A stretch of 64,000 bases of DNA from Candidatus Parcubacteria bacterium (GTDB taxonomy: Bacteria > Patescibacteriota > Patescibacteriia > Magasanikbacterales > UBA922): assembly GCA_002869205.1 (NCBI GenBank), contig PKTJ01000066.1, positions 187-64,186 of the forward strand, given 5' to 3'. Below the pieces are notes generated by a model that saw nothing but the letters and a program-made list of their open reading frames with translations, ran no database searches and was not told where the DNA came from. Both the position numbers and the translations under genes were made by a program. Of the stretch, positions 3,566 to 62,118 are shown one piece after another. Position 1 is the stretch's first letter. Each line of letters starts with the position of its first letter.

Positions 3566-3691
3566 ATTTTGGTTATATATCAAAACAAATAGTTGCTTTA
3601 GAACTACGCTTATTATATAATAAATGTCCCTTTTTATCAATTACTTTGAATTATAAAATTATATATTAGTTTAGCTATTTATTTTGCATTG

Positions 3692-3739
3692 AACCCTACC
3701 CATTCCCTCCCCTAGTAGGGGAGGGTCGGGGGAGGGGTT
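3692..3739. repeat. GC-rich nested-palindrome intergenic repeat, copy 1 (core CCCTCCCCTAgTAGGGGAGGG)
   Basis: Near-identical ~47-nt elements at 24503-24549 (inverted) and 45384-45430. Sits in the divergent intergenic region between the clp gene and pgm. Confidence 0.6.
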
Positions 3740-3789
3740 GCAAAGCAATAGTATAGTTTTATAATTCGGAATAAATATTTTTATTTTCT

Positions 3790-5154
3790 ATGAGCTTTCC
3801 AGATCACATATTCAAGGCATACGATATTCGTGGGCTATATCCACAAGAATTAGACGAAAAAATGGCATATAACATGGGTCGTGCTTATGCTGAATTTATG
3901 AAAAAAGATACTGGAAAAGACGATCTGAAACTCGTGGTCTGTCAGGATATGAGAGACTCTTCTATTCCGCTCAAAAAAGAGTTGGTTCGCGGTATGCTTG
4001 AGCAAGGAGTCGATATTGTTGACATTGGTCTTGCCTCCACCCCAACGTTTTATTTTGGTGTGAGTTTTTATGGGTATGATGGAGGTGTCCAGGTTACGGC
4101 ATCGCATAATCCAGGAGAGTATAATGGATTCAAGATTGTGCGTGCTCGCGCAGTGCCTATTAGTGGTGAGACAGGAATTCATGAGATCCGAGATATGGTT
4201 AGAGGTGCTCAATTTGATCCAGTGGAAAAACAAGGGCAGATTGAAACACGAGAAGGGGTTCTCGAAGAGCAGATTGCTTATGCACTCAAACATATTGATT
4301 ACAAATCAATCAAACCATTGAAAGTCGTGGTAGACACTGGGAATGGTATGGGCGCTCCTATTATTGAGGAGTTGTTTAAACATTTGCCATGTGAACTTGA
4401 TAAAATGTACTTTGAGCTTGATGGTAGTTTTCCAAATCATGAATCAAATCCGTTTAAGGAAGAAAATAACGTAGATATTCAAAATAGAATTAGGGAGACG
4501 GGGGCTGATTTAGGTATTGGGCTTGATGGAGATGGAGATCGCGTATTCTTTTTTGATGAGACAGGTAGAACAATTGATCCAGGTATTATTCGTGGTATTT
4601 TGGCACAGCTTGTGTTGCGCGATCATCCGGGTGCCGCAATTGGATACGATATTCGTCCGGGTAGAATTACACGCGATATGATCGAAGAAGGTGGTGGTAA
4701 ACCATTTGTAACACGTGTCGGTCATTCATTGATTAAAATGAAGGGTATTGAAATGAAAGCACCATTTTCAGGTGAATCATCTGGTCATTTCTTTTACAAT
4801 GAGCCACATGGGTTTTTTGAGATGCCTGCATTTATCATCCTTAATTTTTTAAAAGAGATATCGCAGAGTGGTAAGACGGTGAGTGAATATACAGCACCAC
4901 TCTATCGTTACTCACATTCTGGTGAAATTAATTTTAATGTGGATGACAAAGAAAAAGTATTGCAATTACTAAAAGAAAAATTTGCCGACTCAAAGATTAA
5001 TGATCTTGATGGATTATCTTTTGAGTACGAGGATTATTGGTTTAATGTGCGACCAAGTAATACTGAGTCTTTACTTCGGTTAAATTTGGAAGCCAAGACA
5101 GACGAGATTATGAAGGAAAAAGTTGAAGAGGTAACACGCGTTATTGAAAGTTAA
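3790..5154 (+). CDS. phosphoglucomutase/phosphomannomutase (alpha-D-phosphohexomutase family)
   Basis: TASHNPGEYNGFK phosphoserine loop, GDGDGDR metal loop, FDIRG N-terminus. Confidence 0.9.
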   Translation: MSFPDHIFKAYDIRGLYPQELDEKMAYNMGRAYAEFMKKDTGKDDLKLVVCQDMRDSSIPLKKELVRGMLEQGVDIVDIGLASTPTFYFGVSFYGYDGGVQVTASHNPGEYNGFKIVRARAVPISGETGIHEIRDMVRGAQFDPVEKQGQIETREGVLEEQIAYALKHIDYKSIKPLKVVVDTGNGMGAPIIEELFKHLPCELDKMYFELDGSFPNHESNPFKEENNVDIQNRIRETGADLGIGLDGDGDRVFFFDETGRTIDPGIIRGILAQLVLRDHPGAAIGYDIRPGRITRDMIEEGGGKPFVTRVGHSLIKMKGIEMKAPFSGESSGHFFYNEPHGFFEMPAFIILNFLKEISQSGKTVSEYTAPLYRYSHSGEINFNVDDKEKVLQLLKEKFADSKINDLDGLSFEYEDYWFNVRPSNTESLLRLNLEAKTDEIMKEKVEEVTRVIES

Positions 5155-5200
5155 GAATTACATAATTAAAAAAGACGTGTGCAGCACGTCTTTTTTTGTT

Positions 5201-5968
5201 TTAATTATTTTGTATCCATCCGGTAATCTTTGTCGCCACATTTCTCGGTGCTAGTCTATTTGCAAACGCAAGAAGTTTGTTTCTAAATCCTGGTATCACT
5301 ACACGTTTGTTTTTTATCAGTCCTCGATATCCAACATAGGCGACTTCGTCGGCATTCATAACCTTCATTGTTTTGGGAAAGCGTAGTTCGGCAGCTTTTT
5401 CAAAACCAGTCCGAGTAGGGCCAGGACACAGTGTAGTGACACTCACGCCGGTATTTTTTAATTCTTCTCCAAGAGCTTCTGAGAAATGAAGTACAAATGC
5501 TTTACTTGCATAATATACTGCCATGCCAGGACCTGGTTGGAATGCTGCGGTTGAGGCGATGTTTAAAACTTTTCCACTTTTTTTAGATATCATGTCTGGT
5601 AAGAAAAGTTTTGTAAGTTCTGTCAGTGCAGAGATATTTATTTTGATCATGTCGAGTTCTTTTGCTAGATTTGTTTCTGTAAATTTTCCATATAATCCAA
5701 ACCCAGCATTATTCACTAGTATGTCTATAGTAATATTGTTTTCTTTTATCTCAGCATACAGTTTTTGAGGTGCGTCATCGTCAGTAAGGTCGTGGGTAAA
5801 TACATGGGTTTGAATATCGTGTGTACTCGAAAGTTCTTTTGCAATTGTATCTAGTTTTTCTTTATTACGTGCCACCAAAACGATATTGTGATTGTTTTGT
5901 GCAAAACGTTTACATAGCTCATATCCTATACCACTTGATGCGCCAGTGATGAGTACTGTTTTTTGCAT
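5201..5968 (-). CDS. short-chain dehydrogenase/reductase (SDR) family oxidoreductase
   Basis: TGASSGIG cofactor motif, NNAG, YxxxK (YYASKAF). Confidence 0.85.
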   Translation of the reverse strand: MQKTVLITGASSGIGYELCKRFAQNNHNIVLVARNKEKLDTIAKELSSTHDIQTHVFTHDLTDDDAPQKLYAEIKENNITIDILVNNAGFGLYGKFTETNLAKELDMIKINISALTELTKLFLPDMISKKSGKVLNIASTAAFQPGPGMAVYYASKAFVLHFSEALGEELKNTGVSVTTLCPGPTRTGFEKAAELRFPKTMKVMNADEVAYVGYRGLIKNKRVVIPGFRNKLLAFANRLAPRNVATKITGWIQNN

Positions 5969-5978
5969 AATATATCTA

Positions 5979-6632
5979 TTAGATTTCTATGTCTTTGAGA
6001 GATTCTGACAAGAAAATAGTATCAAAATTTCCATTAAAAAATTCTTTTGGATGAAGTGCGCGAGTTACCATGAGGAGGTTTTTTTCAATAACATTTTCAG
6101 CTTTCTTGTGATTTGCGAGTCCTGTGTTGAATCCTGCTTGATGGTATGCATCGTTCACAAGTTGTGAACAAAAAAATTGTTGTTGTTTTGATGCAAAAAA
6201 GAAATCAAAAGGTTTGCCAATTTGTTTTCGTGCATAGCGCACAGTTTTCTTTATTATTGTTTTTTTGTGTTTTTTGAGACGTGGTCTGAGAATAGCGAGC
6301 GTATCATATTCTGAAAAGAAATTTCTAAATTTTTCTCTTACAACACCATCTGAAACTGCATGTATGACACGTCCGCCACCGGTATAGATACATGCATGCG
6401 TGACAGGACCGCGTATGAATAAGCCACTTGCCCTTCTGTGGTTTCCGACCAAGAGCATGTCTCCTTTTTGGATTATTTTTAGTGCATTTTTATAATCTTG
6501 TGGAGTAAGATTATTTTTTCGCCACGTAACTTTTGTAACCCCAATCAAAAAAATAATATTTCCAAATATTTTTTTGAATACTGAAGCATTCTCTTCAAAA
6601 TTTTTTATGAGATGATATCTATAGGATTTCAT
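5979..6632 (-). CDS. YiiX/YaeF-like permuted papain-fold (NlpC/P60-related) putative amidase
   Basis: FFCSQLV cysteine motif and HAV/HACIY histidines; family assignment made from memory of motifs only. Confidence 0.45.
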   Translation of the reverse strand: MKSYRYHLIKNFEENASVFKKIFGNIIFLIGVTKVTWRKNNLTPQDYKNALKIIQKGDMLLVGNHRRASGLFIRGPVTHACIYTGGGRVIHAVSDGVVREKFRNFFSEYDTLAILRPRLKKHKKTIIKKTVRYARKQIGKPFDFFFASKQQQFFCSQLVNDAYHQAGFNTGLANHKKAENVIEKNLLMVTRALHPKEFFNGNFDTIFLSESLKDIEI

Positions 6633-6639
6633 TTTTTGT

Positions 6640-7509
6640 TTATACTAGTCCACGAAGTTTTTTAATACGATCTTCTGCTGGTGGATGTGTAGAAAAGAAT
6701 TTTGAAAAGCCCTTTCCTTTGAGAGGGTTTGAAATGAAGAGGTGGGCTGTCGCAGTGCTTGCGGTAGGGAGAGCTGAAGATTTGGAAATTTTTTCAAGCG
6801 CTCGCGCAAGACCTTCTGGATATCTTGTTAGAAGTGCGCCAGATGCATCTGCAAGGTATTCGCGTTTTCGTGAGATAGCGAGTTTGATGAGTTCGGCGAT
6901 AATAGGGGAGAGTATGAGTAAAATCAGTCCGATAATCGCAAAATATCCACTTCCTTTACTATCACTTTTTCCACCACCATACCATCGTGCACGGAAAAAC
7001 CAATTACTAATCAGAGATATTGTTCCGACAAGGACGACTACAATGGTCATGAGTCTAATGTCGAAATTTTTGATATGAGATATTTCATGTGCGATCACTC
7101 CTTCGAGTTCTTCGTTTTCGAGTGCTTTTACAATTCCTGTGGTGACAGCTACTGATGCGTGCTCTGGATCTCTACCTGTGGCAAATGCATTCATGGCAGG
7201 GGAGTCTATAATATATACTTTTGGGGTCGGGATTCCGGCGGTAATAGCCATGTTTTCTACCATGCGATATACATATGGATCAGCTTCCTTCGTTGTTTCT
7301 CTGGCGCCGGTAGAGCGTAGTGCGATTTTGTCTCCCTTGTAGTAGCTTATGAGTGTCATGAGAACAGAAATAACCATAGCACCCACGACCATAGCGTATC
7401 CACCGCCATAATATACATCGAGTGCCCAGCCGATTGCGAGAATGATTATCATAAACACAAAGATGAGAATCTTTGTCTTGCGTTTGTTTGAGTCTATTTG
7501 AGAATACAT
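6640..7509 (-). CDS. htpX: protease HtpX (M48 zinc metalloprotease)
   Basis: HEISH zinc motif, N-terminal TM helices, typical HtpX length; adjacent LemA as in many genomes. Confidence 0.9.
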   Translation of the reverse strand: MYSQIDSNKRKTKILIFVFMIIILAIGWALDVYYGGGYAMVVGAMVISVLMTLISYYKGDKIALRSTGARETTKEADPYVYRMVENMAITAGIPTPKVYIIDSPAMNAFATGRDPEHASVAVTTGIVKALENEELEGVIAHEISHIKNFDIRLMTIVVVLVGTISLISNWFFRARWYGGGKSDSKGSGYFAIIGLILLILSPIIAELIKLAISRKREYLADASGALLTRYPEGLARALEKISKSSALPTASTATAHLFISNPLKGKGFSKFFSTHPPAEDRIKKLRGLV

Positions 7510-11248: not shown

Positions 11249-13720
11249 ATGTTAGTAAGTTACAATTGGTTAAAATATTACGTTGATCTCCCAGATTCAC
11301 TTACACCCGAAGAGTTGGGATTGAAATTGACTATGGGGGTGGTTGAGGTTGAGGGTGTGGAGAAACTTGGAAATAATCTGGAAAAGATTTTTGTTGGCAA
11401 AGTCTCTGGCGTTCAAGATCACCCAAATGCAGATAAGCTTAAAATCTGTACAGTTGAGTTTGGACAGGACCATCCTGCACAAGTAGTGTGCGGTGGTTCA
11501 AATGTGACAGAAGGAATGCTGTGCGCGTTTGGTTCGCTTGGTGCAAAAGTAAAATGGCATGGAGAAGGTGAATTGGTTGAACTCAAAAAAGCAAAAATTC
11601 GTGACGCAGAAAGTTATGGAATGATTTGTGCCGCAAGTGAGATTGGTCTTGGGGAAATGTTTCCTGCAAAAGACGATGCAGAAATTTTGGATTTGAGCGA
11701 TATGAAATTAAAAGTAGGGGAACCTCTTGCAAAAGCACTAGGGTTAAATGATGTCGTATTTTATATTGATAATAAATCAATGACACATCGTCCAGATCTC
11801 TGGGGTCATTATGGTATGGCACGAGAGGTCGCAGCGGCTTATGGCAAGAAGTTGAAGAAATATGAGCCGGCTGAGATAGGTAAGGCAAAAAAGACCGAAG
11901 GGGCAGCTCTAGAGCTGTCCGTACGGGTTGAGGATGCGCAATTATGTCCACGATATATGGCAGTCGCAATAGATGGTATCAAAGTCGGTCCGTCTCCAGA
12001 TTGGATGCAGACACTATTATTAGCAGCAGGACTTCGTCCGATTAATAATATTGTAGATATCACCAATTTCATTTTGTTGGATCTGGGTCAACCAATGCAT
12101 GCTTTTGATAAGTTAAAAGTAGAAAGTGAAAAGGGAAAAGTAGACATACTCGTGCGTAGAGCAAAAGATGGAGAAAAGTTTACAGCTTTAGATGAGCAAG
12201 AGTATGAATTGACGAGTGATATGCTTGTCATTGCTGATAACAAAAAAGCCGTTGCGCTTGCCGGTGTGATAGGTGGTTTAAATAGTGAAATTTCAGATGA
12301 CACCACCGCTATTGTATTTGAATCAGCAAATTTTGATGCAACAAATGTTCGTAGAACCGCTACGAAATTGGGTTTGAGAACTGATGCGTCAGCTCGTTTT
12401 GAAAAGAGTCTTGATCCAAACAATGCAGAACTTGCACTTCGTCGTGCTGTGGAGCTTACACTTGAAATATGTCCTGAAGCAAAAGTTGTGAGTAAGGTAG
12501 CTGATGAAAAGAATTTTAATTTGAATCAAGGTCCAATTGAATTATCTTTAGAATTTTTAAACAAAAAAATTGGTAAAGAAATTTCTAAAAAAGAAGTTGT
12601 TAAAATTCTCGAAGGTCTTGGGTTTGAAATTAAAGATAAAAAAGATGTATTGTTTGTCACTGTTCCTACGTGGCGTGCGACAAAAGATATTTCTATCCCA
12701 GAAGATCTCGTAGAAGAAGTTTCTCGTGTGTATGGATATGATAATATTGAGACGGTTTTGCCTTCTTTTCCTGTTGCACCGCCAGAACGCAATGAATTAC
12801 GTCTTCTTGAGCGCACGGTAAAGAATGTAATGTCGATGTCTCATGGATATACTGAGAGTATTAATTATTCGTTTATTTCTCCTGATCTCTTGAATGCTGT
12901 TGGTTTAGAGGTTGGTAAACATATTGAGCTTGATAATCCGATTGCAAAAGATCGTCCATATTTGCGCAGAACTCTTTTACCAAATTTATTTGAAAATGTA
13001 GAGAAAAATATTCATGACAGAAATGACCTCTATCTATTTGAAGTAGGTAAGGTTTTCAGGTTGGAAGAATCAGGTGAACGTGTGAGTGGTAATAGTGATG
13101 ATTTGTTACCTCGGCAAGATGTGGTGTTTTCAAATGTATACGCAAGCAAGAATGATAAAAAACCATTTTATGAAATTTCACAAAGCGTAGGGTCTTTACT
13201 CAATGAGTTAGGTGTCCATACCTCGTTTGATATAGTGGGTGAGACACAAGAAAAATATATTCATCCCGGCCGTGTAGCATACATTACTGTCAATGGTGAA
13301 AAGCTTGGTGTAATCGCAGAACTTCATCCTGCCGTCCAAAAAAAGCTTGGTATTGATGTACGCGTTGGTTTTGCTGAAATAAATCTTACTAGACTCCTGG
13401 AATATTCAGCAGAACGTGCCAACTATACGGGTGTACCAGCATATCCACCAGTTTTGCGCGATATTGCTCTTGTCGTGGATGAAGGTGTGATGAATCGTGA
13501 TATGATTAACACTATTAAATCTGTGGACAATCTTGTTTCTGATGTTGAATTATTTGATGTGTTTGAAGGTAGTAAGCTAGGAAAAGGTAAGAAGAGTGTG
13601 GCATATCATATTACATACATGTCAAAGGAAAAAACACTTGAAGCAACTGACGTTGATAAAATCCATGACAAAGTTGTGAAGGTGCTTGAGAAGGAATTTA
13701 AAGCAGAGGTGAGGAAATAG
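11249..13720 (+). CDS. pheT: phenylalanine--tRNA ligase beta subunit
   Basis: tRNA-binding N-terminus, B3/B4, B5 and FDX-ACB-like C-terminus; 823 aa, immediately after pheS. Confidence 0.95.
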   Translation: MLVSYNWLKYYVDLPDSLTPEELGLKLTMGVVEVEGVEKLGNNLEKIFVGKVSGVQDHPNADKLKICTVEFGQDHPAQVVCGGSNVTEGMLCAFGSLGAKVKWHGEGELVELKKAKIRDAESYGMICAASEIGLGEMFPAKDDAEILDLSDMKLKVGEPLAKALGLNDVVFYIDNKSMTHRPDLWGHYGMAREVAAAYGKKLKKYEPAEIGKAKKTEGAALELSVRVEDAQLCPRYMAVAIDGIKVGPSPDWMQTLLLAAGLRPINNIVDITNFILLDLGQPMHAFDKLKVESEKGKVDILVRRAKDGEKFTALDEQEYELTSDMLVIADNKKAVALAGVIGGLNSEISDDTTAIVFESANFDATNVRRTATKLGLRTDASARFEKSLDPNNAELALRRAVELTLEICPEAKVVSKVADEKNFNLNQGPIELSLEFLNKKIGKEISKKEVVKILEGLGFEIKDKKDVLFVTVPTWRATKDISIPEDLVEEVSRVYGYDNIETVLPSFPVAPPERNELRLLERTVKNVMSMSHGYTESINYSFISPDLLNAVGLEVGKHIELDNPIAKDRPYLRRTLLPNLFENVEKNIHDRNDLYLFEVGKVFRLEESGERVSGNSDDLLPRQDVVFSNVYASKNDKKPFYEISQSVGSLLNELGVHTSFDIVGETQEKYIHPGRVAYITVNGEKLGVIAELHPAVQKKLGIDVRVGFAEINLTRLLEYSAERANYTGVPAYPPVLRDIALVVDEGVMNRDMINTIKSVDNLVSDVELFDVFEGSKLGKGKKSVAYHITYMSKEKTLEATDVDKIHDKVVKVLEKEFKAEVRK

Positions 13721-20034: not shown

Positions 20035-21078
20035 TCAGCGAGTTGTGCGGATCGAGGTGTCCCAGTGGTGGTGGTAGATGATGTGACCGAGGTCTGTGAG
20101 CCACGAGACGACACGGATCTTGCCCGACTTGACGAAGGGGTTCAAGAACTGTCGATTCACGAGCGGGACCGTGTCTGCGACGTAGAGGCGATCGAGCGGC
20201 GAGTGATCGAGCTGCAGGTTCTCCACCGCGTCACCACACAGAATGGCGTGCGTAACGATTGCCCAGAATTCGTGGATCTCGGCACGTTCTCGGACGGTGT
20301 TAGCTGTCCTCAGATTCGTGCTGACTGTCGCCGCTTCATCGTCCACAGACAGAACCAGTGCACCTTCGAGTTCATCGACATCTCGATAGATGTCTTTGAT
20401 CTCGACGTCGCGGCTGTTTCCACGACGTTTGTCACCAAACGTCGTGAAGATGTCACAGTCGAGCTCGTCGGCCACGTTCGTGACAGCTTCCTCATAGCGC
20501 TTCTTGGCGCCGTTGTCTGGGTAGTGTACGACGATCTTGTCGTGAGTTTGCAGCGCTTCTTCGAGCGCCTGCTTGAATACGCGCTTGAACATACTCACTT
20601 CGGTGATGAGACCAGGGTCACCGGCCATCACAACCTGCGAAGCGTGGAGATCGACGGAGATGATTCTGTCGAGTCTGCCTTGCGCGGCCGTCTTCATCAG
20701 CGAGACGATGAGGGGTGGAAGAGCGAACTCGTCGTCAGCTTCGTCTCTGTCGGATCGCGAGAGCGGGAAGTAGGCGGTGATGACGGTGATTCGGGCGGCT
20801 CTTCTGCCTGCCACGTGGTTGAGCAAGAAGAATAGGTTCACGAGCATGTCGGGGGTGCCAGGGCCACTGGTCAAGATCACGCAGTCGTGACCGCCGATGT
20901 GCTTCTTCTTCAGCTTGATGAAGGGTTCTTTGCTGCTGCGCCGACCGAAGATCGGAGACGCGATGTCGACAGGCGTCTCTTTCCTTTCGATCTGCTCTTT
21001 GAGAAGGGTGGCGATGTCTTCGAATCCGGGCATGGGAACGAGCGTGAGCGCGCCGTGCTGGCTGTGTCTGTCTTTCAT
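20035..21078 (-). CDS. divergent ribose-phosphate pyrophosphokinase (PRPP synthetase) family protein, second copy
   Basis: Aligns along its whole length to Prs (HDCVILTSG..RITVITAYFPLSRSDRD..DLHASQ..KRRGNSRDVE..SVDDEAATVST). Signature loops are altered: GYARQDRK becomes PLSRSDRD and DTGGT becomes EAATVST. GAGGG ribosome-binding site 8 nt before the ATG. Confidence 0.7.
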   Translation of the reverse strand: MKDRHSQHGALTLVPMPGFEDIATLLKEQIERKETPVDIASPIFGRRSSKEPFIKLKKKHIGGHDCVILTSGPGTPDMLVNLFFLLNHVAGRRAARITVITAYFPLSRSDRDEADDEFALPPLIVSLMKTAAQGRLDRIISVDLHASQVVMAGDPGLITEVSMFKRVFKQALEEALQTHDKIVVHYPDNGAKKRYEEAVTNVADELDCDIFTTFGDKRRGNSRDVEIKDIYRDVDELEGALVLSVDDEAATVSTNLRTANTVRERAEIHEFWAIVTHAILCGDAVENLQLDHSPLDRLYVADTVPLVNRQFLNPFVKSGKIRVVSWLTDLGHIIYHHHWDTSIRTTR

Positions 21079-21158
21079 AACGAAACCCTCGTAATTAGAT
21101 CAAGAAAACGACCTCCCCGGCCGTCTCCTCGATGTGTGAAATGAGCAAACATGTCACC

Positions 21159-21188
21159 ATAATAATTGTTTTGAGTTGTCATGTCAAC
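21159..21188 (-). promoter_or_regulatory. sigma70-like promoter for the prs-like gene (TTGACA-17-TATTAT)
   Basis: Minus-strand -35 at 21183-21188 and -10 at 21159-21164, between the udk terminator and the prs-like ribosome-binding site. Confidence 0.55.
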
Positions 21189-21202
21189 CATAAAAAAAAC
21201 GA

Positions 21203-21233
21203 ACACCCCGAGGCCGAAGCCACCGGGGTTTTA
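21203..21233 (-). terminator. rho-independent terminator downstream of udk
   Basis: Minus strand AAAACCCCGGTGGC-ttcg-GCCTCGGGGTGTT followed by T8. Confidence 0.65.
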
Positions 21234-21239
21234 GTTCGC

Positions 21240-21863
21240 TCAGGATGGGTGGAATCCGTTGAGCATCTGTTCGAGTCCTGCCTGAATGAACAGGCGTGCG
21301 ATCTCGTTGTTCCCGCCGTGTGGCACGATCAGGTTCGCGTGTCTGCGGGTCGGGTGACAGAATTCGTCGTGCATGGGTGCGACAGTGCCTTCCCATTGCT
21401 CGAGGATACCTTCGAGTTTGCGTCCTCGTTCCAGAACGTCTCGTTTGATACGACGCGCGAGACGTGTGTCTCCGGGCGTGTCGACGTAGATCTTGATCTT
21501 GGCGAGGCTTACCAATTCAGGTACAGCGAGCGCGAGTATTCCTTCGGCGATGATGAACGTTTTTGGGTCCACCTGGACACGCTCAGGTTCACGCGAATGC
21601 GTGTTGTAGTCCCAGCGCGGGGTCTGGACCGATACACCATCGACGAGCTCGCGAACGTGTGACACCATTAGGATGTTGTCGAAAGACCCTGGGTGGTCGA
21701 AGTTGCCGTTCTGGACGTAGGGAGACTCGGGGTCGTAATAGAAGTCGTGGCAGATTCGACAGCACTTGTCATCGCCGAGCATTCGGATGATTTCACGCGC
21801 GAGCGTTGTCTTACCAGAACCAGTGCCACCAGCGACGATGATCACGACAGGCGTGTTTTCCAT
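21240..21863 (-). CDS. udk: uridine/cytidine kinase
   Basis: P-loop GGTGSGKTT, NFDHPGSFD, FIIAEGIL, YVDTPGDTRLARRIKRDVLERGR, ANLIVPHGGNN; near colinear with E. coli Udk. Start placed at MENTPVV, which has GGAGG 9 nt upstream. Confidence 0.85.
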   Translation of the reverse strand: MENTPVVIIVAGGTGSGKTTLAREIIRMLGDDKCCRICHDFYYDPESPYVQNGNFDHPGSFDNILMVSHVRELVDGVSVQTPRWDYNTHSREPERVQVDPKTFIIAEGILALAVPELVSLAKIKIYVDTPGDTRLARRIKRDVLERGRKLEGILEQWEGTVAPMHDEFCHPTRRHANLIVPHGGNNEIARLFIQAGLEQMLNGFHPS

Positions 21864-21959
21864 CTTGAGCTTCCTCCAATTTGCAACAAAGCAGGCCATC
21901 GGCCTGCTCCTTTGTTGTATTTCAGAAATATTGTAACGCTACTTTTGTAGTTTGTCAAA

Positions 21960-25964: not shown

Positions 25965-26204
25965 TTATGTAACCAAGAAGTGTGTTCCTACACTTTCTTT
26001 TCTATCTAGAGCCGACTGAGTAATCAATTTTGCTACAGTATGTAAGTTTTTAAGTTCAAGAATTTCTTTGTTTATACCATCGTTTAATATCTCTTTAAGT
26101 TCTATATTGTATTTATTTAATTCTTCAAGTGTTTTTTTCATATTTTCTTCTTTTCGAATAATGCCAACATTATTCCACATCAATTTTTGAATTGATGATT
26201 TCAT
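25965..26204 (-). pseudogene. nadB: L-aspartate oxidase C-terminal helical-domain fragment, separated from the nadB body by an in-frame TAA
   Basis: Sequence LELKNLHTVAKLITQSALDRKESVGTHF matches the NadB/flavoprotein C-terminal domain. It lies in the same frame as 26247-27485, and the only interruption is a TAA inside the 8-bp tandem repeat. Confidence 0.7.
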
Positions 26205-26230
26205 TTTTTTAATTTTTGGATCATTATTTT

Positions 26231-26274
26231 TTCCAACTTTCCAACTTTACAACTTTCCAACTTTCCAACTTTTT
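26231..26274. repeat. 8-bp tandem repeat (CCAACTTT)x5, i.e. AAAGTTGG on the coding strand; the third unit reads AAAGTTGT and creates TAA
   Basis: Read directly from the sequence. Confidence 0.9.
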
Positions 26275-27485
26275 TCTTTTTCAATATATGTTTTTGTTGC
26301 GTCAACTGCTCTCCCACTAAATACCATACACTCTAGCAAAGAGTTTGATGCGAGACGGTTTGCGCCGTGTACTCCTGTGTGTGCGACTTCGCCAAATGCG
26401 AAGAGTCCAGGAATGTTCGTCCGTCCATCGAGGTCTGTATGAATACCGCCGCATATAAAATGTGCAGCAGGGGATATAGGAATCAAATCTTTGTCCATTT
26501 TGATATCATGCCACCAGAGATTTTCATAGAGGTATGGGAAACGTTTTTTTATATAAGCACTTCCTTTGTGTCTAATATCTAAATATACGGTACCATGCTT
26601 CATTTCTTCCAAAATTGCTCGAGCAACTATATCGCGGGGCGCCAAATCTTTCAATTCATGATAGTTTTTCATGAATTGTTCGCCTTTGCTATTTACAAGA
26701 ACACCGCCTTCACCGCGAACTGTTTCTGATATAAGTAACGACGGCGCACCTTTTTTATTAAGAGCAGTTGGGTGAAACTGAATAAATTCCATATCTTTAA
26801 TTTCAGCACGTGCTTTGTATGCCATCGCGACACCATCACCTGTGGCGATTTTTGGATTTGAATTTCTTTCATATACTTGTCCTGCACCGCCGGTTGCAAG
26901 AATTGTTGCCTTTGCAGAGAAATTGAGAATCTTGTTATTATCAGTGTCCAGGACGAATGCACCTATGCATTGTCTTGGTGTTGAGACGCGATCAATCGCG
27001 TCTTTACTTTCGGCTAATTTAAATGCGACATGCGATTCAAATATGGTTATGCGCTTATGGTGGCGCACTTGGTGAATGAGGGCTCGCTCTATTTCTTTGC
27101 CAGTTGTATCGTGTGCATGAGCGATCCTGCGCTCAGAATGTCCACCTTCTTTGGATAGACATAGCTCGTCTTGTTTTTTGCTAAAGCCAACACCGACGTC
27201 GATGAGTCGCTTGATTTGATTTGGTGCTTCTTTGATCATTATCTCTACTGCTTCTTTATCATTCAGATGGCACCCAGCTTTCATAGTATCTTCGATATGT
27301 TTATCAAAACTATCCATCTTATCTAGTACCGCAGCAATACCACCTTGTGCATAGTTGCTGTTGCTTTCCATAAGCTCTTTTTTGGTCACAATAGCGACAG
27401 TTCCATACTCACTTGCTTGCAAGGCAAAATTCAGGCCTGCAATGCCGCTGCCTATTACTAAGAAGTCAAAACTGTTTTTAAACAT
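26247..27485 (-). CDS. nadB: L-aspartate oxidase, FAD-binding and capping domains (412 aa, truncated by a stop inside the repeat)
   Basis: FAD motifs (VIGSGIAGL, RHHK, HYxxGG), in the nadA/nadC neighbourhood. Confidence 0.85.
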   Translation of the reverse strand: MFKNSFDFLVIGSGIAGLNFALQASEYGTVAIVTKKELMESNSNYAQGGIAAVLDKMDSFDKHIEDTMKAGCHLNDKEAVEIMIKEAPNQIKRLIDVGVGFSKKQDELCLSKEGGHSERRIAHAHDTTGKEIERALIHQVRHHKRITIFESHVAFKLAESKDAIDRVSTPRQCIGAFVLDTDNNKILNFSAKATILATGGAGQVYERNSNPKIATGDGVAMAYKARAEIKDMEFIQFHPTALNKKGAPSLLISETVRGEGGVLVNSKGEQFMKNYHELKDLAPRDIVARAILEEMKHGTVYLDIRHKGSAYIKKRFPYLYENLWWHDIKMDKDLIPISPAAHFICGGIHTDLDGRTNIPGLFAFGEVAHTGVHGANRLASNSLLECMVFSGRAVDATKTYIEKEKSWKVGKL

Positions 27486-27495
27486 ATAATATGCT

Positions 27496-27549
27496 GATTT
27501 CCAGATAACCCAGATTTACGGATATCTGAATTATCTGGAAATCCGAATC
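27496..27549. repeat. palindromic intergenic repeat family P (core GGATTTCCAGATAATCCAGATTTACGGATATC), copy 1
   Basis: 13-bp perfect arms GATTTCCAGATAA/TTATCTGGAAATC; 5 copies in the window. Confidence 0.65.
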
Positions 27550-27558
27550 TTAAAATGA

Positions 27559-28422
27559 TTAAAGAATGTCTAAGCTTATATCCAAAGACTTAACCGAGTG
27601 GGTGAGACTTCCAAGAGAAATTACGTTTACACCACTCTTTGCATAAGAAATAATATTTTTTTCTGTAATACCACCGGATGCTTCAAAAATAATATTTGTT
27701 TTTCCAATTTGTTTTATTATTTTTTTAATATCTTGTGGTTTGAAATTGTCGAACATTATTGCGTCTGGTTTTTGTTTTACAAAGTCTAATATTTGTTTTT
27801 TTGTTTTGCATTCTACTTCTGTGAAGTAACTAGTTACTGGTAACTTGTTACTAGTTACTAATTTGAGATGGTTATCTTTTATCAAAATCCAATCATATAG
27901 ACCAAGTCGGTGGGTGCCTCCGCCGCCGAGTGTCACTGCTTTTTTGTCTACCAATCCCCATTGTGTCTTGCGTGTTGGTACCACAAGTACATGTTTTCCA
28001 ACTTTTTTTACAAGTTTATCAGTTTGCGTTGCAATACCAGACATGCGTTGCATCAAGTTTAGAATCGTGCGTTCAATCTTTAAAATATCTTTTATGCCTC
28101 CTGTTAGTTTTAAAATCTTATCTCCTTTTTTTACTCTCGCTCCGTCTCGCTTGTATCTTGTAATTTGTATCTTGTATCTTTTTAAGAACCATTTTGTTTC
28201 TTCAAGACCAGCGAGTGTGCCAGATTCTTTTGCTTTTAGTATAGCAGTAACTTTTGGATTTCCTTTTATTGTTGCGTCGCTTGTGACGTCACCTTGGCTA
28301 TCCAAATCCTCAATCAAAAAATCCTCAGTTAATCTTTTTACCTGCCTCAAGTACTTACGATTTTTCAAGGTAAGTTTTTCTCTTTGGTTATAATATTTTT
28401 TGATTTTTTGTTGCTTGGTCAT
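27559..28422 (-). CDS. nadC: nicotinate-nucleotide pyrophosphorylase (quinolinate phosphoribosyltransferase)
   Basis: NadC core (LLNLMQRMSGIAT, TRKT, GGGGTHRLGLYD, LIKDNH). Confidence 0.85.
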   Translation of the reverse strand: MTKQQKIKKYYNQREKLTLKNRKYLRQVKRLTEDFLIEDLDSQGDVTSDATIKGNPKVTAILKAKESGTLAGLEETKWFLKRYKIQITRYKRDGARVKKGDKILKLTGGIKDILKIERTILNLMQRMSGIATQTDKLVKKVGKHVLVVPTRKTQWGLVDKKAVTLGGGGTHRLGLYDWILIKDNHLKLVTSNKLPVTSYFTEVECKTKKQILDFVKQKPDAIMFDNFKPQDIKKIIKQIGKTNIIFEASGGITEKNIISYAKSGVNVISLGSLTHSVKSLDISLDIL

Positions 28423-28482
28423 ATTGACTATAAAAATTTATTGTGATATGTTTTATAAGTTACACAACGGAAGGAGAGCCCT

Positions 28483-28701
28483 ATGACGTCAAAGGATGTG
28501 GTTGTCACCATCACGATCGGAGATGCAGAAGGTGATCAAGGTATCAAGGTGTCCGGAGATGTTCACCTGACTCACAACGTCGCGAACAGGGCGCTGAATC
28601 TGTTCGCCAGCACGATGCTTCATGCGCTCGGAGAGAGTAGCATGCTCGCGCGTAACTTCTGGAGTGCGATCTCGAATCTCGCATCAACGGTCCGTAAGTA
28701 G
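28483..28701 (+). CDS. GC-rich island B: hypothetical 72-aa protein inserted inside the NAD operon
   Basis: GC-rich codons in an AT-rich operon. GGAAGGAG ribosome-binding site 6 nt upstream; TTGACT-17-TATGTT promoter 2 bp from the nadC start. A tiny ORF (MPMEVQYI, 28737-28763) with its own GGAGGA site follows. Confidence 0.55.
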   Translation: MTSKDVVVTITIGDAEGDQGIKVSGDVHLTHNVANRALNLFASTMLHALGESSMLARNFWSAISNLASTVRK

Positions 28702-28830
28702 GACTAGTGAGGTTCGGTGACCATGGAGGAAAGGACATGCCCATGGAAGTACAGTATATATGAATTTCGTTTATACTGTTCTATCATGGGTAAATAATTT
28801 TGAAAAGGACTGTAGAGATACGGTTCTTTT

Positions 28831-30180
28831 TTATTTACTTAATTCCATCATTTTATCTAAACTTATTTTTGCTTTTTGTAATACTTCTTTACCAAGATTA
28901 ATAATTTGATCTTTACGTGGATTCTTAAGTGCAGTGAGAATATCTTCTAACTTTATTTTTTTCATATACGGACAGAGCTGGCAGCTACCAACAATGTGTT
29001 TATTCGGGAATTCTGTTTGTACCCTGTCGGTAATACCGCATTCAGTAATTAGCATGTAGTGCTCAGAAGGGTTGTCTTTTACATAGTTCAACATATCACT
29101 CGTGCTACCAACTAGATCAACCGAGTCAATGACAGAGGGGGTGCATTCATAATGTGCTAATATTTTTGTATGAGGAAATTGAGCTCTAATTTTTTTTACT
29201 GCGCGTTTATCAAATTGTTCATGCACTATGCATACACCATCCCATAAAATTAACTTTTTTTTCGTCAATTTTTGTAAGTTATGCCCCATAAGCATGTCGG
29301 GAATAAAAATAATTTCATCGTTTGGAAGACTTTCGATAATTTTGAGTGCATTTGAACTGGTGACACATATATCACTTTGAGCTTTTACTTCCGCACTCGT
29401 GTTTACATATGTCAAAATAGGAACTCCTGGATGTTTTTCTTTTAGATTTTGTACATCTTTGGCAGTGATTGAGTCAGCGAGTGAACATCCTGCAACTGCA
29501 GGAATAAGGACTTCTTTTTCTGGACTCAAGATTTTTGCAGTCTCACCCATGAAGTGTACTGAGCAAAAAATAATTTTCTTTGCGCTGTGTTCTGCCGCAA
29601 TTTTACTAAGCCCATATGAATCTCCAAGGAAGTCTGCTACACCATACATAATGTCTGTTGTTTGGTAAGAGTGGGCGAGTATGATGGCATCTTGTTCACG
29701 CTTTAATTTATTTATTTCAAGTGTTGTTGGTGCAATGCTTAGACAGTAGCCAAATGTCCTTTTTGTTTTTTTTAATTTTTCAAATAGACGTGCAGCTTCT
29801 TCACGTATCTCGGTTGCGCTGATGTTAATATTTTTTTTAATCATTTTTACGTTGTAATTTTTTTCTTCAAATAATTTTTTTACTACATCATTTCCTGTAT
29901 ATACTGTGTCAAATTCTCCAACAGTATTTTTGACATGATTAACCCATTCATTTTCGTTATGAATATCAGGAATGGCGATGATTTGATAATTTAAATTTAA
30001 TCCATCTAGATTAGATTCTATGTTTTTTTTACGCTCCTCAAAACTTTGTGGATTGTCATCGGTTTCACTATATTGTGAGCTACCAACACCAATAATAATC
30101 TCACTTTCTGAGATTTGTTTAATGGCATCTAAATGCCCATCATGAAATGGCTGGAATCGTCCGATGAATAGTGCTTTCAT
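28831..30180 (-). CDS. nadA: fusion protein: N-terminal NadM-type NMN adenylyltransferase plus C-terminal quinolinate synthase
   Basis: N-terminus GRFQPFHDGH..ISATEIR (cytidylyltransferase, NadM-like). C-terminus ILAHSYQ, VADFLGDS, CSVHFMGETAKIL, TYVNTS, VTSSNA and Cys ligands of NadA. Confidence 0.8.
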   Translation of the reverse strand: MKALFIGRFQPFHDGHLDAIKQISESEIIIGVGSSQYSETDDNPQSFEERKKNIESNLDGLNLNYQIIAIPDIHNENEWVNHVKNTVGEFDTVYTGNDVVKKLFEEKNYNVKMIKKNINISATEIREEAARLFEKLKKTKRTFGYCLSIAPTTLEINKLKREQDAIILAHSYQTTDIMYGVADFLGDSYGLSKIAAEHSAKKIIFCSVHFMGETAKILSPEKEVLIPAVAGCSLADSITAKDVQNLKEKHPGVPILTYVNTSAEVKAQSDICVTSSNALKIIESLPNDEIIFIPDMLMGHNLQKLTKKKLILWDGVCIVHEQFDKRAVKKIRAQFPHTKILAHYECTPSVIDSVDLVGSTSDMLNYVKDNPSEHYMLITECGITDRVQTEFPNKHIVGSCQLCPYMKKIKLEDILTALKNPRKDQIINLGKEVLQKAKISLDKMMELSK

Positions 30181-30184
30181 GGCA

Positions 30185-30227
30185 GAGTTAGAAAGTTTAT
30201 AAAGTGAAAAAGTTTTAAAGTTTACAG
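30185..30227. repeat. AAAGTT-motif repeat (GAGTTAGAAAGTTTATAAAGTGAAAAAGTTTTAAAGTTTACAG) in the nadE-nadA gap
   Basis: Shares GAGTTAGAAAGTTTA-AAAGT with the in-frame repeat at 42577-42616. Confidence 0.5.
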
Positions 30228-31012
30228 ATAGGAGGTATTTTGTTTTTGTGAGTGGCTTTGTTCATCAACTTTCTTACTTTTTCTACATCATTTGTTTCAA
30301 ATTTATCTAGACTTTTATTTTGTTCAAGTGACGTCAAAATTTTATCGAGTGTTTCATATGTCATTCCAATCTCATCTTCATCAGTTTGCCCATCCCATAG
30401 TCCAGCCGTTGGTGGGCGATCGATTATTTCCTGCGGTACACCTATGTATTTTGCAAGCTCTCGTTCTTCGGTCTTGTATAAGTCACCAATGGGAAGGAGG
30501 TCTGCGCCGCCGTCACCATGTTTTGTAAAGTATCCAATTGAGAGTTCAGTCCTGTTTCCTGTACCGAGCACGAGTCCGTCTAGTTCGTTTGCTTTTCCAT
30601 ACAGAAGTGACATGCGAATGCGTGCTTTCAGATTTCCCAAAGATTGTTTTGAGGTATAAAGGTTATCTGTAGATTTTTGGAAGCTTTCAATAATAGTATC
30701 AATATTGAATATTGAATATTTAATATCTAGATTTTCACATATATTTTTTGCATATTCCAAATCTTGATCAGTATTTGTTTCAGAAGGGGATATGATTGTA
30801 TGAATTTTATTGCTCCCGAGTGCTTCTGCTGCTAAATATGCAACGACAGAAGAGTCTAATCCGCCACTTAATCCCAAGACGGCAGGCTTGTCTTCACAGT
30901 ACTTTTGCAAGAAGGAAATAATCGATTTTTTGGAGTGTTCTGAGTTCATGTGATAGGTATTATGATCGACAGGTATTCTAGCACAAGGATCCACAGTTGT
31001 CATTATTGACAA
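30215..31012 (-). CDS. nadE: NH3-dependent NAD+ synthetase
   Basis: PP-loop SGGLDSS, about 265 aa, NAD cluster context. Confidence 0.9.
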   Translation of the reverse strand: MSIMTTVDPCARIPVDHNTYHMNSEHSKKSIISFLQKYCEDKPAVLGLSGGLDSSVVAYLAAEALGSNKIHTIISPSETNTDQDLEYAKNICENLDIKYSIFNIDTIIESFQKSTDNLYTSKQSLGNLKARIRMSLLYGKANELDGLVLGTGNRTELSIGYFTKHGDGGADLLPIGDLYKTEERELAKYIGVPQEIIDRPPTAGLWDGQTDEDEIGMTYETLDKILTSLEQNKSLDKFETNDVEKVRKLMNKATHKNKIPPICKL

Positions 31013-31048: not shown

Positions 31049-31120
31049 GGCCCCATCGTCTAGTGGTTAGGACATCTGGTTTTCATCCAGAAAACAGGGG
31101 TTCGATTCCCCTTGGGGCTA
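31049..31120 (+). tRNA. tRNA-Glu (anticodon TTC)
   Basis: Manual cloverleaf: acceptor GGCCCCA/TGGGGCT, anticodon stem-loop TCTGG-TTTTCAT-CCAGA, T-loop GGGGTTCGATTCCCC; CCA not encoded. Confidence 0.75.
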
Positions 31121-31135
31121 CGAATTATCGTACTA

Positions 31136-31830: not shown

Positions 31831-31894
31831 CGGATTTCCGGATAATCCAGATTTACAGATATCTGTCGATCAGGATTATCCGGAGATAAGGATC
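31831..31894. repeat. palindromic intergenic repeat family P, copy 2 (between rplJ and rplL)
   Basis: CGGATTTCCGGATAATCCAGATTTACAGATATCTGTCGATCAGGATTATCCGGAGATAAGGATC. Confidence 0.65.
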
Positions 31895-35735: not shown

Positions 35736-36122
35736 ATGTTTTTGTTAATCGACATGTCAGAGCTAGACCAGATTCATCTGGCTCTTTTTGATTCAGAAAA
35801 GCGGTTTGACAAAACATTTGAAGGAAGAAATCGTGAGCTTCTAGCATCGATCGACACATTAACGAAAAACCATGGAGCATGGAGCATGGAGCAGTTGGAA
35901 GGTGTTATGGTTGTGGTGGGTGCGGGGAGTTTTACGAGTACCAGGATTGCATGTGTGGTGGCGAATACGTTTGCTTATGCAAAGCAGATTTCATTACTCG
36001 CTATTTCAGTTGACCAAGTTGATCAAGTGCAGGATTTAATCCCAGAACTTTTGAAACAACCAAAGGGGCAGTATATTTCAGCAACTTATTCAGCTGAGCC
36101 AAATATTGGGAAGAAAAAGTAA
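35736..36122 (+). CDS. tsaB: tRNA threonylcarbamoyladenosine biosynthesis protein TsaB-like (inactive Kae1 homolog, short form)
   Basis: N-terminal ASKHA fold pattern with GAGSFTSTRIACVVANTFAYA matching the YeaZ/TsaB GPGSFTGVRIGIG region. Confidence 0.6.
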   Translation: MFLLIDMSELDQIHLALFDSEKRFDKTFEGRNRELLASIDTLTKNHGAWSMEQLEGVMVVVGAGSFTSTRIACVVANTFAYAKQISLLAISVDQVDQVQDLIPELLKQPKGQYISATYSAEPNIGKKK

Positions 36123-46037: not shown

Positions 46038-46070
46038 TTCGGATTTCCAGATAATTCAGATTTACGGATA
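46038..46070. repeat. palindromic intergenic repeat family P, copy 4 (half element abutting the dtd start codon)
   Basis: TTCGGATTTCCAGATAATTCAGATTTACGGATATG, where the final ATG is the dtd start. Confidence 0.6.
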
Positions 46071-52013: not shown

Positions 52014-52100
52014 AGATCCTGATATTCGGATACCCTTAGGGCATTTCTCTCCGGGAATAATCCAGATTTACAGATATCACATCCGTAGATCTGGATTATC
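52014..52100. repeat. palindromic intergenic repeat family P, copy 5 (with an ACCCTTAGGGCATTTCTCTCCGGG insert)
   Basis: ATTCGGATACCC...AATCCAGATTTACAGATATC...ATCTGGATTATCCGGAAATCAG. Confidence 0.65.
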
Positions 52101-52126
52101 CGGAAATCAGTATATAAAATAGTTTT

Positions 52127-60135: not shown

Positions 60136-61173
60136 ATGCATATGATGTTATCTCAAAAAGAAAAATTATTTTTAATACCTCTTGGGCTTGTTGCTATTGT
60201 GGTAGCTGCGGTTGGTGGGTATGTTATTTCTGAAGTGGGTTTTTCTGGAGGTGGTGAGGAAAGACAAATAGTTTCATATAGTGAAGAATCACCTGATCAA
60301 GATGAAAATAAGATCGATACTAAAGTGGAGGATCAGATGATTTCGTGTGTCATGGTAGACAAAAGTTTGGATATTGTTCCAGACGAAGGTCTGGGTGTGT
60401 ATTACAAGACACGCTTGTTTCCTGTAGAGACAAATGTTAGGCATGATATTTTTGTAAATGATTCAGCAATTATTGCGTTTAAACATTTTAATGGAGGAGG
60501 GGACCCCTATAATTATGATGAGGAAAAGTGGAGTAAGTTTGCTGGACAAGGACCTTCTTATTTTGTCGAAATGCTAGATTTTTCTGCACCTAGGAATGTT
60601 TCTGTTATCCCAACTTTTTCTATTCCTCATGAGGTTATTACCAATGACAATTTTATGGGTAATATCACAAATGTGAGTTATGGTGATAGTTGGTTTATTT
60701 TCTCTCGGGGGTTTGCAGCGTTTACTGGTTCGGTGGTGGATCAGAGATTGACAGAGGTTGCCTATGATCGTAAGTTTCGAGAGATTGTTATTCCAGAAGA
60801 ATACACTGCTGATCCAGAATTTCGTTCTGGTCCGGTTCATGGTTTTACTGTTAATAATAATACGTCAACCATAGGAGACATGCTTGGTCTTTTGCGTGAT
60901 GATACCATTGTGTTTTCTTTGCAAAAAAATACTAGTACATATATTGGTTATGAAATAAAAAATGACTCATGGATAGAAGTTTCTGTAGATGAGATATATG
61001 ATGTTGATATGACAGTCTATGAAGAGGTTGGTGGACCACGTATATACAAACCCCTTGATCTTATCAAGGAGTATGGTTGTTTTGCACTTCCAACACCGCG
61101 TGGTGATATGGTTTTTACGTCGCATGAGCTTGGTAATCTGAATGACGAGATGGATGTGTGGTTTGCTCGATAG
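60136..61173 (+). CDS. hypothetical membrane-anchored protein (345 aa)
   Basis: N-terminal TM helix; no known motif. Confidence 0.45.
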   Translation: MHMMLSQKEKLFLIPLGLVAIVVAAVGGYVISEVGFSGGGEERQIVSYSEESPDQDENKIDTKVEDQMISCVMVDKSLDIVPDEGLGVYYKTRLFPVETNVRHDIFVNDSAIIAFKHFNGGGDPYNYDEEKWSKFAGQGPSYFVEMLDFSAPRNVSVIPTFSIPHEVITNDNFMGNITNVSYGDSWFIFSRGFAAFTGSVVDQRLTEVAYDRKFREIVIPEEYTADPEFRSGPVHGFTVNNNTSTIGDMLGLLRDDTIVFSLQKNTSTYIGYEIKNDSWIEVSVDEIYDVDMTVYEEVGGPRIYKPLDLIKEYGCFALPTPRGDMVFTSHELGNLNDEMDVWFAR

Positions 61174-61292
61174 GAATATAACATAATATCAAAAAATGAT
61201 CCGGAGAGGGTCATTTTTTATTTGCTTTTTATTTTTGGTCGTGTTAGGTTTTATATATTGTCAACAATGTTCTCCACCAGATGAGGTCTGAT

Positions 61293-62045: not shown

Positions 62046-62118
62046 AGGGAGGGTGTTGTGGCACGTTCACCACCAAGGGGAAGCCCTGACTGATCGCACC
62101 GAACAGTCGGGGACAGTC

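Follow-up and report, generated by a model that had tools for sequence, protein, structure and literature searches.

Does a stop codon inside an octamer repeat make nadB of a Parcubacteria genome a dead gene, a gene in two pieces or a gene that can be switched? This question is raised by the L-aspartate oxidase gene for de novo synthesis of nicotinamide adenine dinucleotide (NAD) in 64 kb of DNA from Candidatus Parcubacteria bacterium, an uncultured organism represented by a metagenome-assembled genome (MAG). The whole 64-kb stretch is called the window here, and all coordinates are window positions. An earlier interpretation made without database searches (the sequence-only reading) had proposed either a pseudogene or a contingency switch working by slipped-strand phase variation. 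The stop is genuine but belongs to an ordinary kind of event, a nonsense point mutation in a microsatellite linker that is translated and inherited. With good confidence it is regarded as an ordinary young nonsense break or a tolerated split in a repeat-built linker, and not as a slipped-strand on/off switch. The chances that de novo NAD synthesis is still running or was freshly lost are roughly even. The more interesting result, worth a separate systematic look, is the occurrence of in-frame arrays of 7- and 8-nt units at orthologous loops.

The stop codon in the NadB linker

The closest relative of the window protein is an intact NadB of 508 aa (P0001; 84% amino acid identity, about 80% nucleotide identity over the syntenic block). 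It was found in MAGs named Ca. Parcubacteria (GCA_018655875.1; isolate SI034_bin149), referred to as the sister lineage. The repeat and the open reading frames (ORFs) of the window gene are located as follows:

26247 to 27485, minus strand: upstream nadB ORF, 412 aa, with the domain binding flavin adenine dinucleotide (FAD) and the capping domain, ending at the premature TAA (ORF list, PF00890, TIGR00551)
26247 to 26249, minus strand: premature TAA (codon 413) with the changed base 26249, GAA in the sister lineage; also found in assemblies L006 and L007
26230 to 26272, minus strand: tandem array of the octamer AAAGTTGG, 5.4 copies, five full units at 26233-26272, unit 3 being AAAGTTGT, in the interdomain linker (Tandem Repeats Finder, pattern search)
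25965 to 26246, minus strand: in-frame continuation of nadB, 93 codons and stop, with the last linker residues and the C-terminal three-helix domain (translation, PF02910)
25965 to 26204, minus strand: 79-aa ORF from the first in-frame ATG past the stop, nearly the whole helical domain (GenBank PLX26148.1)
26201 to 26224, minus strand: out-of-frame mini-ORF ATG ATC CAA AAA TTA AAA AAA TGA (MIQKLKK*) (direct reading)

Translation of the minus strand from 27485 to 25965 gave 506 sense codons and a single internal stop at codon 413, the TAA at 26249-26247 inside unit 3 of the octamer array. Neither a second stop nor a frameshift was detected in the rest of the frame. The changed base is the T at plus-strand coordinate 26249. 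In the sense of the minus strand it is a G-to-T substitution, converting the Glu codon GAA, which is kept in the sister lineage, to TAA. In GenBank the two parts are called PLX26149.1 (412 aa, L-aspartate oxidase; entry P0002 of the protein collection) and PLX26148.1 (79 aa, hypothetical protein).

The 412-aa part matched PF00890 (FAD_binding_2) with 3.5e-92 over profile positions 1-414 of 414. With this part alone, 486 bits were obtained for TIGR00551, the NCBIfam nadB equivalog, with a cut-off of 452.75. The N-terminal GxGxxG dinucleotide fold is present, and VIGSGIAGL, FHPTAL, LAPRDIVARA, PAAHFICGG and HGANRLASNS align to the E. coli motifs and are invariant in 20 relatives. The residues aligned to H244, R290, H351 and R386 of E. 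coli NadB, which we take from the 1CHU/1KNR literature to be the active-site residues, are all present and all located upstream of the stop. The downstream part matched PF02910 (Succ_DH_flav_C) with 1.4e-14. In the alignment with E. coli NadB (PDB 1CHU) the stop falls at about residue 420, past the catalytic part and ahead of the helical-domain match. Relatives have NadB proteins of 490-560 aa in one uninterrupted ORF spanning the catalytic and helical domains; the window has no such ORF. The stop in the linker, due to T26249, cuts the gene at the domain boundary; the 412-aa ORF retains all catalytic residues, and the helical domain is left to a 79-aa ORF.

By Tandem Repeats Finder one array was detected at 26230-26272 with period 8, 5.4 copies, 94% matches and a score of 79. 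The units of the minus strand are AAAGTTGG AAAGTTGG AAAGTTGT AAAGTTGG AAAGTTGG, and the longest perfect run is two units, one pair on each side of AAAGTTGT. For pairs of AAAGTTGG, four overlapping matches were counted compared to 0.16 expected; none of 100 shuffles reached four, and the array is the sole site in the window. An 8-nt unit repeated over 24 nt encodes one cyclic peptide, KVGKLESW, whichever of the three frames is read; the peptide of the array is KSWKVGKL*SWKVGK. A G-to-T change at unit position 8 yields a stop in only one of the three frames, and the change in the window fell in that frame.

The structure of the sister protein predicted by AlphaFold2 (mean predicted local distance difference test, pLDDT, of 90.8) places the array-encoded residues 406-424 in a coil with the local pLDDT minimum of 76-86. 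This coil links the helix 381-405 with the three-helix bundle 425-441, 448-471 and 475-496. In an alignment of 20 relatives, the linker from ...YI(K/R)K to IQKLMW is hypervariable in length and sequence. It comprises 24 aa in the window versus 28 aa in P0003, a further relative, and the array adds no length. At the corresponding site the sister nadB carries AAAGTTGG x4 and AAAGTTAT, with GAA at the stop position, in six assemblies. Judged by sequence and model, the array is a translated, tolerated and inherited piece of predicted disordered linker, which the window has in common with the sister species. Homogenisation as the cause of its conservation was rejected as unneeded; the lineages have three differences per 40 nt in the array compared to 5/50 and 7/41 in the flanks.

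The claims of the sequence-only reading can be compared with these results. A nadB frame from 27485 to 25965 broken by one TAA within the third octamer unit, the five-unit repeat itself and the location of the stop at the domain linker were all confirmed, by translation, repeat detection, the E. coli alignment and the predicted coil, respectively. Two details had to be corrected: the G/T position is 26249 and not 26248, and the unmutated codon is GAA (Glu) instead of GGA. The description of the array as a non-native insert did not hold, as the sister lineage has a matching five-unit array in an intact ORF, the linker is hypervariable throughout the family and that of the window is not longer. 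Relatives with the array but without the stop had been named as the observation that would speak against an insert or a switch; the sister lineage has exactly such an array.

The allele with TAA recurs in two other assemblies, L006 (ENA ERZ794998, NODE_356) and L007 (JGI 3300007102, Ga0102541_1121165). The three assemblies of the window lineage are 99.99% identical. Compared to the window, L006 and L007 both carry another base at 27820, and L006 has a second difference at 30721; hence the assemblies represent at least two separate consensus haplotypes and not one record copied. The stop is a real lineage-specific base substitution, reproducible in three assemblies. In a search of 5.8 billion protein clusters no intact allele of the window lineage was found among the matches listed, where the best full-length NadB was the 84% sister. 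Length variants of either protein were absent from the protein collection, and the 90%-identity clusters of both nadB proteins have a single member each. In the comparison of 12 syntenic genes with the sister lineage nadB alone is broken, the other 11 being full length. The split state is confined to the window lineage (three assemblies); the sister lineage and 100+ relatives have the fused gene.

P0055 and P0062 gave no C-domain Pfam match. They were rejected as natural short NadBs because of a frameshift in an A9 run in one of them and an in-frame TAA in the other. Lesions in the C-domain of nadB from other Patescibacteria are the A9-run frameshift at about 1930-1960 of L247 (GCA_041643095.1) and the in-frame TAA at about 2700-2712 of L248 (GCA_964359965.1). 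They may be errors, or they may reflect recurrent decay or dispensability of the helical domain.

TAA is the main stop codon of the window, ending 36 of the 54 genes, 13 of them as TAAA. Reassignment of TAA or genome-wide read-through was therefore rejected, these 13 genes having the same TAAA context as nadB. No suppressor tRNA was found among the three tRNAs of the window. A known RNA element was not detected at the nadB site either; Rfam matches in the window were the three tRNAs and an L10 leader.

Dead gene, two-piece enzyme, artefact or switch

The following course of events is proposed. By a G-to-T change at 26249, specific for the lineage, the Glu codon GAA became TAA. The octamer microsatellite affected has five units, was inherited and encodes the predicted disordered linker between the FAD-binding and capping part and the C-terminal three-helix domain. 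The change split nadB at the domain boundary into ORFs of 412 and 79 aa, and the helical domain might be made by re-initiation at the ATG at 26204, 42 nt past the stop.

We infer that the lesion is young or that the downstream part is still in use, because the C-domain is without decay and nadA, nadC, nadE and the domain of nicotinamide mononucleotide (NMN) adenylyltransferase (NMNAT) are intact. All 14 family-invariant columns are kept in the C-domain. A relative-rate test gave p = 0.25 (Fisher), with 6 vs 3 lineage-specific changes in the C-part and 10 vs 16 in the N-part. Identity in the C-part, divided by that in the N-part, was 0.89 compared to 0.76 +/- 0.07 in intact pairs. Neither relaxed constraint nor further lesions were found past the stop, in a test whose reach does not include very recent inactivation.

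A fresh loss-of-function pseudogene, as the first step towards losing de novo NAD synthesis in a reduced and probably host-dependent genome, was given somewhat less than an even chance. The stop is premature relative to all intact orthologues, and a second lineage-specific disruption of the operon exists, an insert of 408 bp between nadA and nadC. Furthermore, two relatives have the A9 frameshift or the in-frame TAA in the C-domain of nadB. As the fused adenylyltransferase belongs to the archaeal type that accepts NMN, salvage of NMN or of the riboside could bypass NadB. No other lesion was seen in nadB and no relaxed constraint downstream, which argues against a dead gene, as do the intact genes nadA, nadC and nadE. 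The salvage genes pncA/B, nadV, pnuC and nadR were not found among the approximately 50 window proteins scanned, most of the genome being outside the window. Of the sequence-only reading the pseudogene thus survived as one of two options, the other being a tolerated split.

In a tolerated split, the 412-aa fragment would be active alone or paired non-covalently with the separately translated 79-aa domain, as an early gene fission. This is possible rather than probable. The stop is in the coil linker and not in a domain, and the linker holds no more than 9.6% of the possible one-step nonsense sites of nadB. Every catalytic residue lies upstream, and the fragment alone passes the cut-off of the nadB equivalog. 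A second NCBIfam equivalog of L-aspartate oxidase, NF004820, has 433 positions, of which the N-part matches 4-389. Its length suggests that short NadBs may exist, which is a lead and not a test. Nothing usable was found in the literature on the dispensability of the helical domain of NadB. The C-part is intact, with its invariant residues kept and no excess divergence, and the rest of the NAD pathway is intact as well.

The break lies in the interdomain linker with a complete domain on either side, and the 79-aa ORF begins about 5 residues into helix 1 of the bundle. The ATG at 26204 is a putative start with an AT-rich leader without Shine-Dalgarno (SD) sequence, as is usual for about 48/54 starts in the window. 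The TGA of the mini-ORF overlaps this ATG (ATGA). The ATG of the mini-ORF itself is exclusive to the window lineage, due to a window-specific G (GAT vs AAT in the sister lineage). Speculatively, the overlap hints at translational coupling of the mini-ORF with the 79-aa ORF. A tolerated split is less favoured by its occurrence in one lineage only; it is not conserved across diverged lineages. A young pseudogene would look identical, and the ATG at 26204, which the intact gene of the sister lineage shares, did not arise for this role.

Unitary pseudogenes and nonsense-split genes of reduced bacterial genomes have likewise a single premature stop compared to intact orthologues and two annotated ORFs. 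In contrast to unitary pseudogenes, the break in nadB is exactly in the interdomain coil, without further lesions and without relaxed constraint downstream. With a break in the coil and no decay, the sequence data do not separate a dead gene from a two-piece enzyme. By itself the nadB stop is minor: it marks a single MAG in which de novo NAD synthesis may recently have been lost or may rely on a NadB in two pieces, a point of relevance to metabolic reconstructions of Parcubacteria. The split nadB is a simple test case for the question if covalent attachment of the helical domain of L-aspartate oxidase is required.

Several points weigh against our reading of a young break or a tolerated split. 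All data are consensus assemblies, so that a GAA allele might be the minority or even the majority in the population. The k-mer coverage of L006 is about 4.5x (NODE_356, cov 4.55), and the three assemblies may come from one site. Both the foreign 408-bp insert, as a second lineage-specific lesion of the operon, and the disrupted nadB C-domains of the two other relatives fit pathway decay better than a tolerated split. The arrays look mutation-prone, one of two single-nucleotide polymorphisms (SNPs) being inside an array and the other 5 nt away from one. Hence, the linker position of the stop is a weaker sign of tolerance.

An artefact, i.e. a T caused by a sequencing or assembly error or by a minority variant chosen by the assembler, with an intact nadB in the organism, is very unlikely. 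It would be in line with the low coverage of the metagenome assembly (NODE_356, cov 4.55) and with the position in a repeat, the kind of sequence in which mapping and consensus are least reliable. The near identity of the three assemblies, which may share a site or reads, also fits. On the other hand, the T was called in three assemblies that come from three pipelines and differ elsewhere, and a consensus seldom retains substitution errors. All 11 other syntenic genes have their full length, and no intact allele came from the gene calls of GenBank, JGI or ENA.

A contingency switch is unlikely, and hardly any weight was given to the octamer array as a slipped-strand phase-variation switch for de novo NAD synthesis: its off state arose by base substitution, the unit number is five in both lineages in spite of about 20% divergence, and no indel was found in the 3 window-lineage and 6 sister-lineage assemblies. 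The repeat has one property of such loci, a unit length (period 8, 5.4 copies) not divisible by three inside a coding sequence (CDS). Four of the six arrays of period 7 or 8 in CDSs of the window fall in NAD operon genes, and the SNPs cluster in or beside arrays. Other units at corresponding sites in other lineages indicate turnover on evolutionary time. The intact and the broken allele differ by G/T in unit 3 and are equal in length and frame, without gain or loss of a unit. A long uninterrupted tract is missing: the T in AAAGTTGT divides the short array into two perfect runs of two units each.

No gap was found among the window, L006 and L007 (over 21 kb), and none among the six sister assemblies. 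This comparison of unit numbers is based on consensus assemblies of near-clonal populations and has limited power; the look-ups in the sister lineage were made by exact protein sequence, with length variants outside their reach. No length variant was present in the database. Scans of metagenome and genome collections with AAAGTTGKAAAGTTGKAAAGTTGK gave, among the matches listed, mostly unrelated arrays of many phyla and allowed no survey of unit numbers; L237 (sister nadB) and L151 (sister prmC) were the only relevant ones. A peptide search with (KVGKLESW)x5 gave only hypothetical ORFs of 30-70 aa, apparently spurious calls over non-coding arrays, and was uninformative on real proteins.

Contingency loci of H. 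influenzae with simple sequence repeats of tetra- to octanucleotide units resemble nadB in having a non-triplet repeat in the CDS, where a slip of one unit shifts the frame (PMC2651432). Candidate phase-variable octanucleotide tracts of Haemophilus have 1-6 or 12-15 units and differ in unit number between strains (PMC2651432). In contrast, the nadB tract is short (5 units), interrupted and constant in unit number, and polymorphism, the defining property of those loci, was not seen. Moreover, nadB is a housekeeping metabolic gene turned off by base substitution. Similar arrays occur in the essential genes tsaD, pheT and prmC, where switching off would be lethal. What remains of the slippage proposed by the sequence-only reading is that linkers and loops in the clade are built from arrays of 7-/8-bp units; the process is a slow turnover of loops and not a reversible switch.

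Arrays of 7- and 8-nt units in conserved genes of the clade

Arrays of period 7 or 8 reaching 2.5 copies or more numbered six in the CDSs of the window, compared to 0.075 expected (40 codon shuffles, maximum 1). At the same copy number, no array with a period divisible by three was detected in these CDSs. The six arrays are:

12106 to 12141: array in pheT
26230 to 26272: array in nadB
27825 to 27860: array in nadC, TAGTAAC x5.1, in frame
28150 to 28180: array in nadC, AAGATAC x4.4, in frame
30701 to 30726: array in nadE, ATATTCA x3.7, in frame
35871 to 35893: array in an ORF

Clade loci with such arrays are the window, L001, L247, L248, L249 and L251-L254. Heptamer or octamer arrays are present in the nadB linker of 7/9 clade genes, several of which also carry arrays in a second variable loop. 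As nadB units in the clade TTACCAA, CTATAAG, CAATTAC, CTAAAAC, AAAATGC, CCTAAAA, TACAAGC, CAAATAT, ATTCAAC and ACACATA were identified. For nadC, the units in the window, the sister lineage and the genome of P0003 are AAGATAC, AGTTCAG and AACCTAT at the first position and TAGTAAC, TCCTAAG and CACTTCC at the second. Loops of tsaD have arrays at the same sites with lineage-specific units, like nadC. Different units at corresponding loop positions imply that the arrays evolve in concert or that they are repeatedly born and lost at fixed hot spots. Some units recur across genes and genomes, namely TTACCAA, AAGATAC, CCTAAAA and AAAGTTGG, the last one in nadB and prmC of the sister lineage. Of the SNPs between assemblies of the window lineage, 30721 (window versus L006) is inside the nadE array and changes the unit between ATATTAA and ATATTCA, and 27820 lies at a distance of 5 nt from an array of nadC.

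In 112 kb of clade DNA, 27/32 arrays of period 7 or 8 have period 7, and four units are preferred. Copy numbers cluster at 4.0-4.8. This fits a seed and three additional units, because 21 or 24 nt is the smallest gain that keeps the frame. Natural control DNA also contained 1.7 arrays of period 7 or 8 per 10 kb, in a biased set that was chosen for carrying an octamer array. Due to this bias, the claim is limited to an enrichment over codon shuffles and does not extend to uniqueness of the clade.

Taken together, there is an even chance that 7-/8-nt microsatellites build and renew variable loops of NadB, NadC, NadE, TsaD, PheT and PrmC with about 4.x in-frame copies, acting at the same time as hot spots of nonsense and frameshift mutations, the nadB TAA being one casualty. 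This would be a distinct and undescribed mode of loop evolution in proteins. The units of 7 or 8 nt are each read in all three frames, and a change in a single unit can make a stop in one frame only; for the same reason the arrays would also be hot spots of nonsense and frameshift alleles. If true, this joint reading would describe a standing source of gene inactivation in reduced genomes. If the array pattern is genome-wide, it would offer a concrete mutational process as the origin of the hypervariable insertions for which proteins of the candidate phyla radiation are well known. As a caution for annotators, such arrays would then be normal coding sequence in this clade and no evidence of phase variation.

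Comparable repeats are known. In Borg elements, genic perfect tandem repeats with unit lengths divisible by three create disordered regions (PMC9879509). The clade arrays resemble them as nucleotide-level repeats within unbroken ORFs, by which disordered loops are added or renewed in a lineage-specific and fast-evolving manner (PMC9879509). In contrast, the units in the clade have 7 or 8 nt, and the frame is kept by about three extra units (21 or 24 nt). According to the citation of Mrazek 2007 in PMC4692102, an excess of heptamers in bacteria is already known and an explanation by the polymerase footprint was proposed. The dominance of period 7 and the preference for four units in the clade arrays are similar to the heptamers covered by that citation. 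As cited there, the heptamers of Xanthomonas and Nostoc are G-rich, mostly intergenic and under-represented in coding regions; as far as this citation goes, the clade arrays differ in being AT-rich, in frame within conserved genes and at orthologous loop positions.

A second AAAGTTGG array is present in prmC of the sister lineage (L151 6866-6889, SI034_bin149), with 3.75 units encoding YKVGKLESWKV. It was rejected as an insert, since homologues of 57-62% identity have KIGRIENWKI or KIGRLRNWKI at this position, a conserved motif of the clade. An orthologue of prmC in the window lineage was not found in a search with the sister PrmC.

Arrays of AAAGTTGT and AAAGTTAG were also observed in apparently non-coding DNA of many unrelated taxa (loci among L008-L246), including other MAGs of Patescibacteria (L164 1-130, L217 about 90-180). 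Some MAGs of Syntrophomonadaceae, Bacteroidota and Phycisphaerae have several such loci per genome. Gene callers often turn these non-coding arrays into hypothetical ORFs of 30-70 aa.

The NAD operon and its neighbourhood

On the minus strand, nadB is the last gene of the operon nadE, NMNAT-nadA, nadC, nadB, which is the context expected for NadB. Past nadB a 94-aa ORF, tsaD, an MFS transporter and prs follow. The other features of the operon, and the copies of a dispersed element in the window, are:

27495 to 27544, minus strand: hairpin with a 20-bp stem between nadC and nadB, formed by two inverted copies of a dispersed 21-nt element (RNA fold)
27559 to 28422, minus strand: nadC, quinolinate phosphoribosyltransferase, intact (profile matches)
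28423 to 28830, no strand assigned: GC-richer insert of 408 bp between NMNAT-nadA and nadC (nadA and nadC abut in the sister lineage)
28831 to 30180, minus strand: fusion of NMN adenylyltransferase (archaeal-type) and quinolinate synthase NadA, 449 aa, intact (profile matches)
30215 to 31012, minus strand: nadE, NAD synthase, intact (profile matches)
27495 to 27544 (two), 31832 to 31852, 46041 to 46061 and 52089 to 52109: copies of GGATTTCCAGATAATTCAGAT

The N-terminal fusion of the adenylyltransferase to NadA is conserved in the sister lineage and in the genome of P0003. The insert contains an ORF of 72 aa (28483-28701, plus strand) with a strong SD sequence, AAGGAGA, and without assigned family. 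At the nadA-nadC junction, the genome of P0003 has a different GC-rich spacer of 278 bp. For the hairpin, located 10 nt upstream of the nadB start, a fold of -28.4 kcal/mol with z = -6.7 was calculated. The sister lineage lacks this hairpin and has another one in its place. The 21-nt intergenic element GGATTTCCAGATAATTCAGAT occurs in 5 copies in the window compared to 0 expected.

Throughout the window SD sequences are rare (missing from about 48/54 starts), and the leaders are AT-rich. The few genes with SD sequence are located in GC-richer, foreign-looking segments at 20035-21899, 28483-28701 and 60136-63060. One of the segments contains a Prs-like gene of 347 aa, absent from the sister lineage, and a uridine kinase with 35% identity to that of the sister.

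The tRNA-Glu(TTC) at 31049-31121 is 100% identical to the sister lineage over 96 bp. Adjoining this tRNA, the sister locus L001 carries a block at 2850-7036, missing from the window, with a serine recombinase, a Zot-like ATPase and a REP_ORF2-G2P replication protein. This block beside tRNA-Glu looks like an integrated inovirus-like element.

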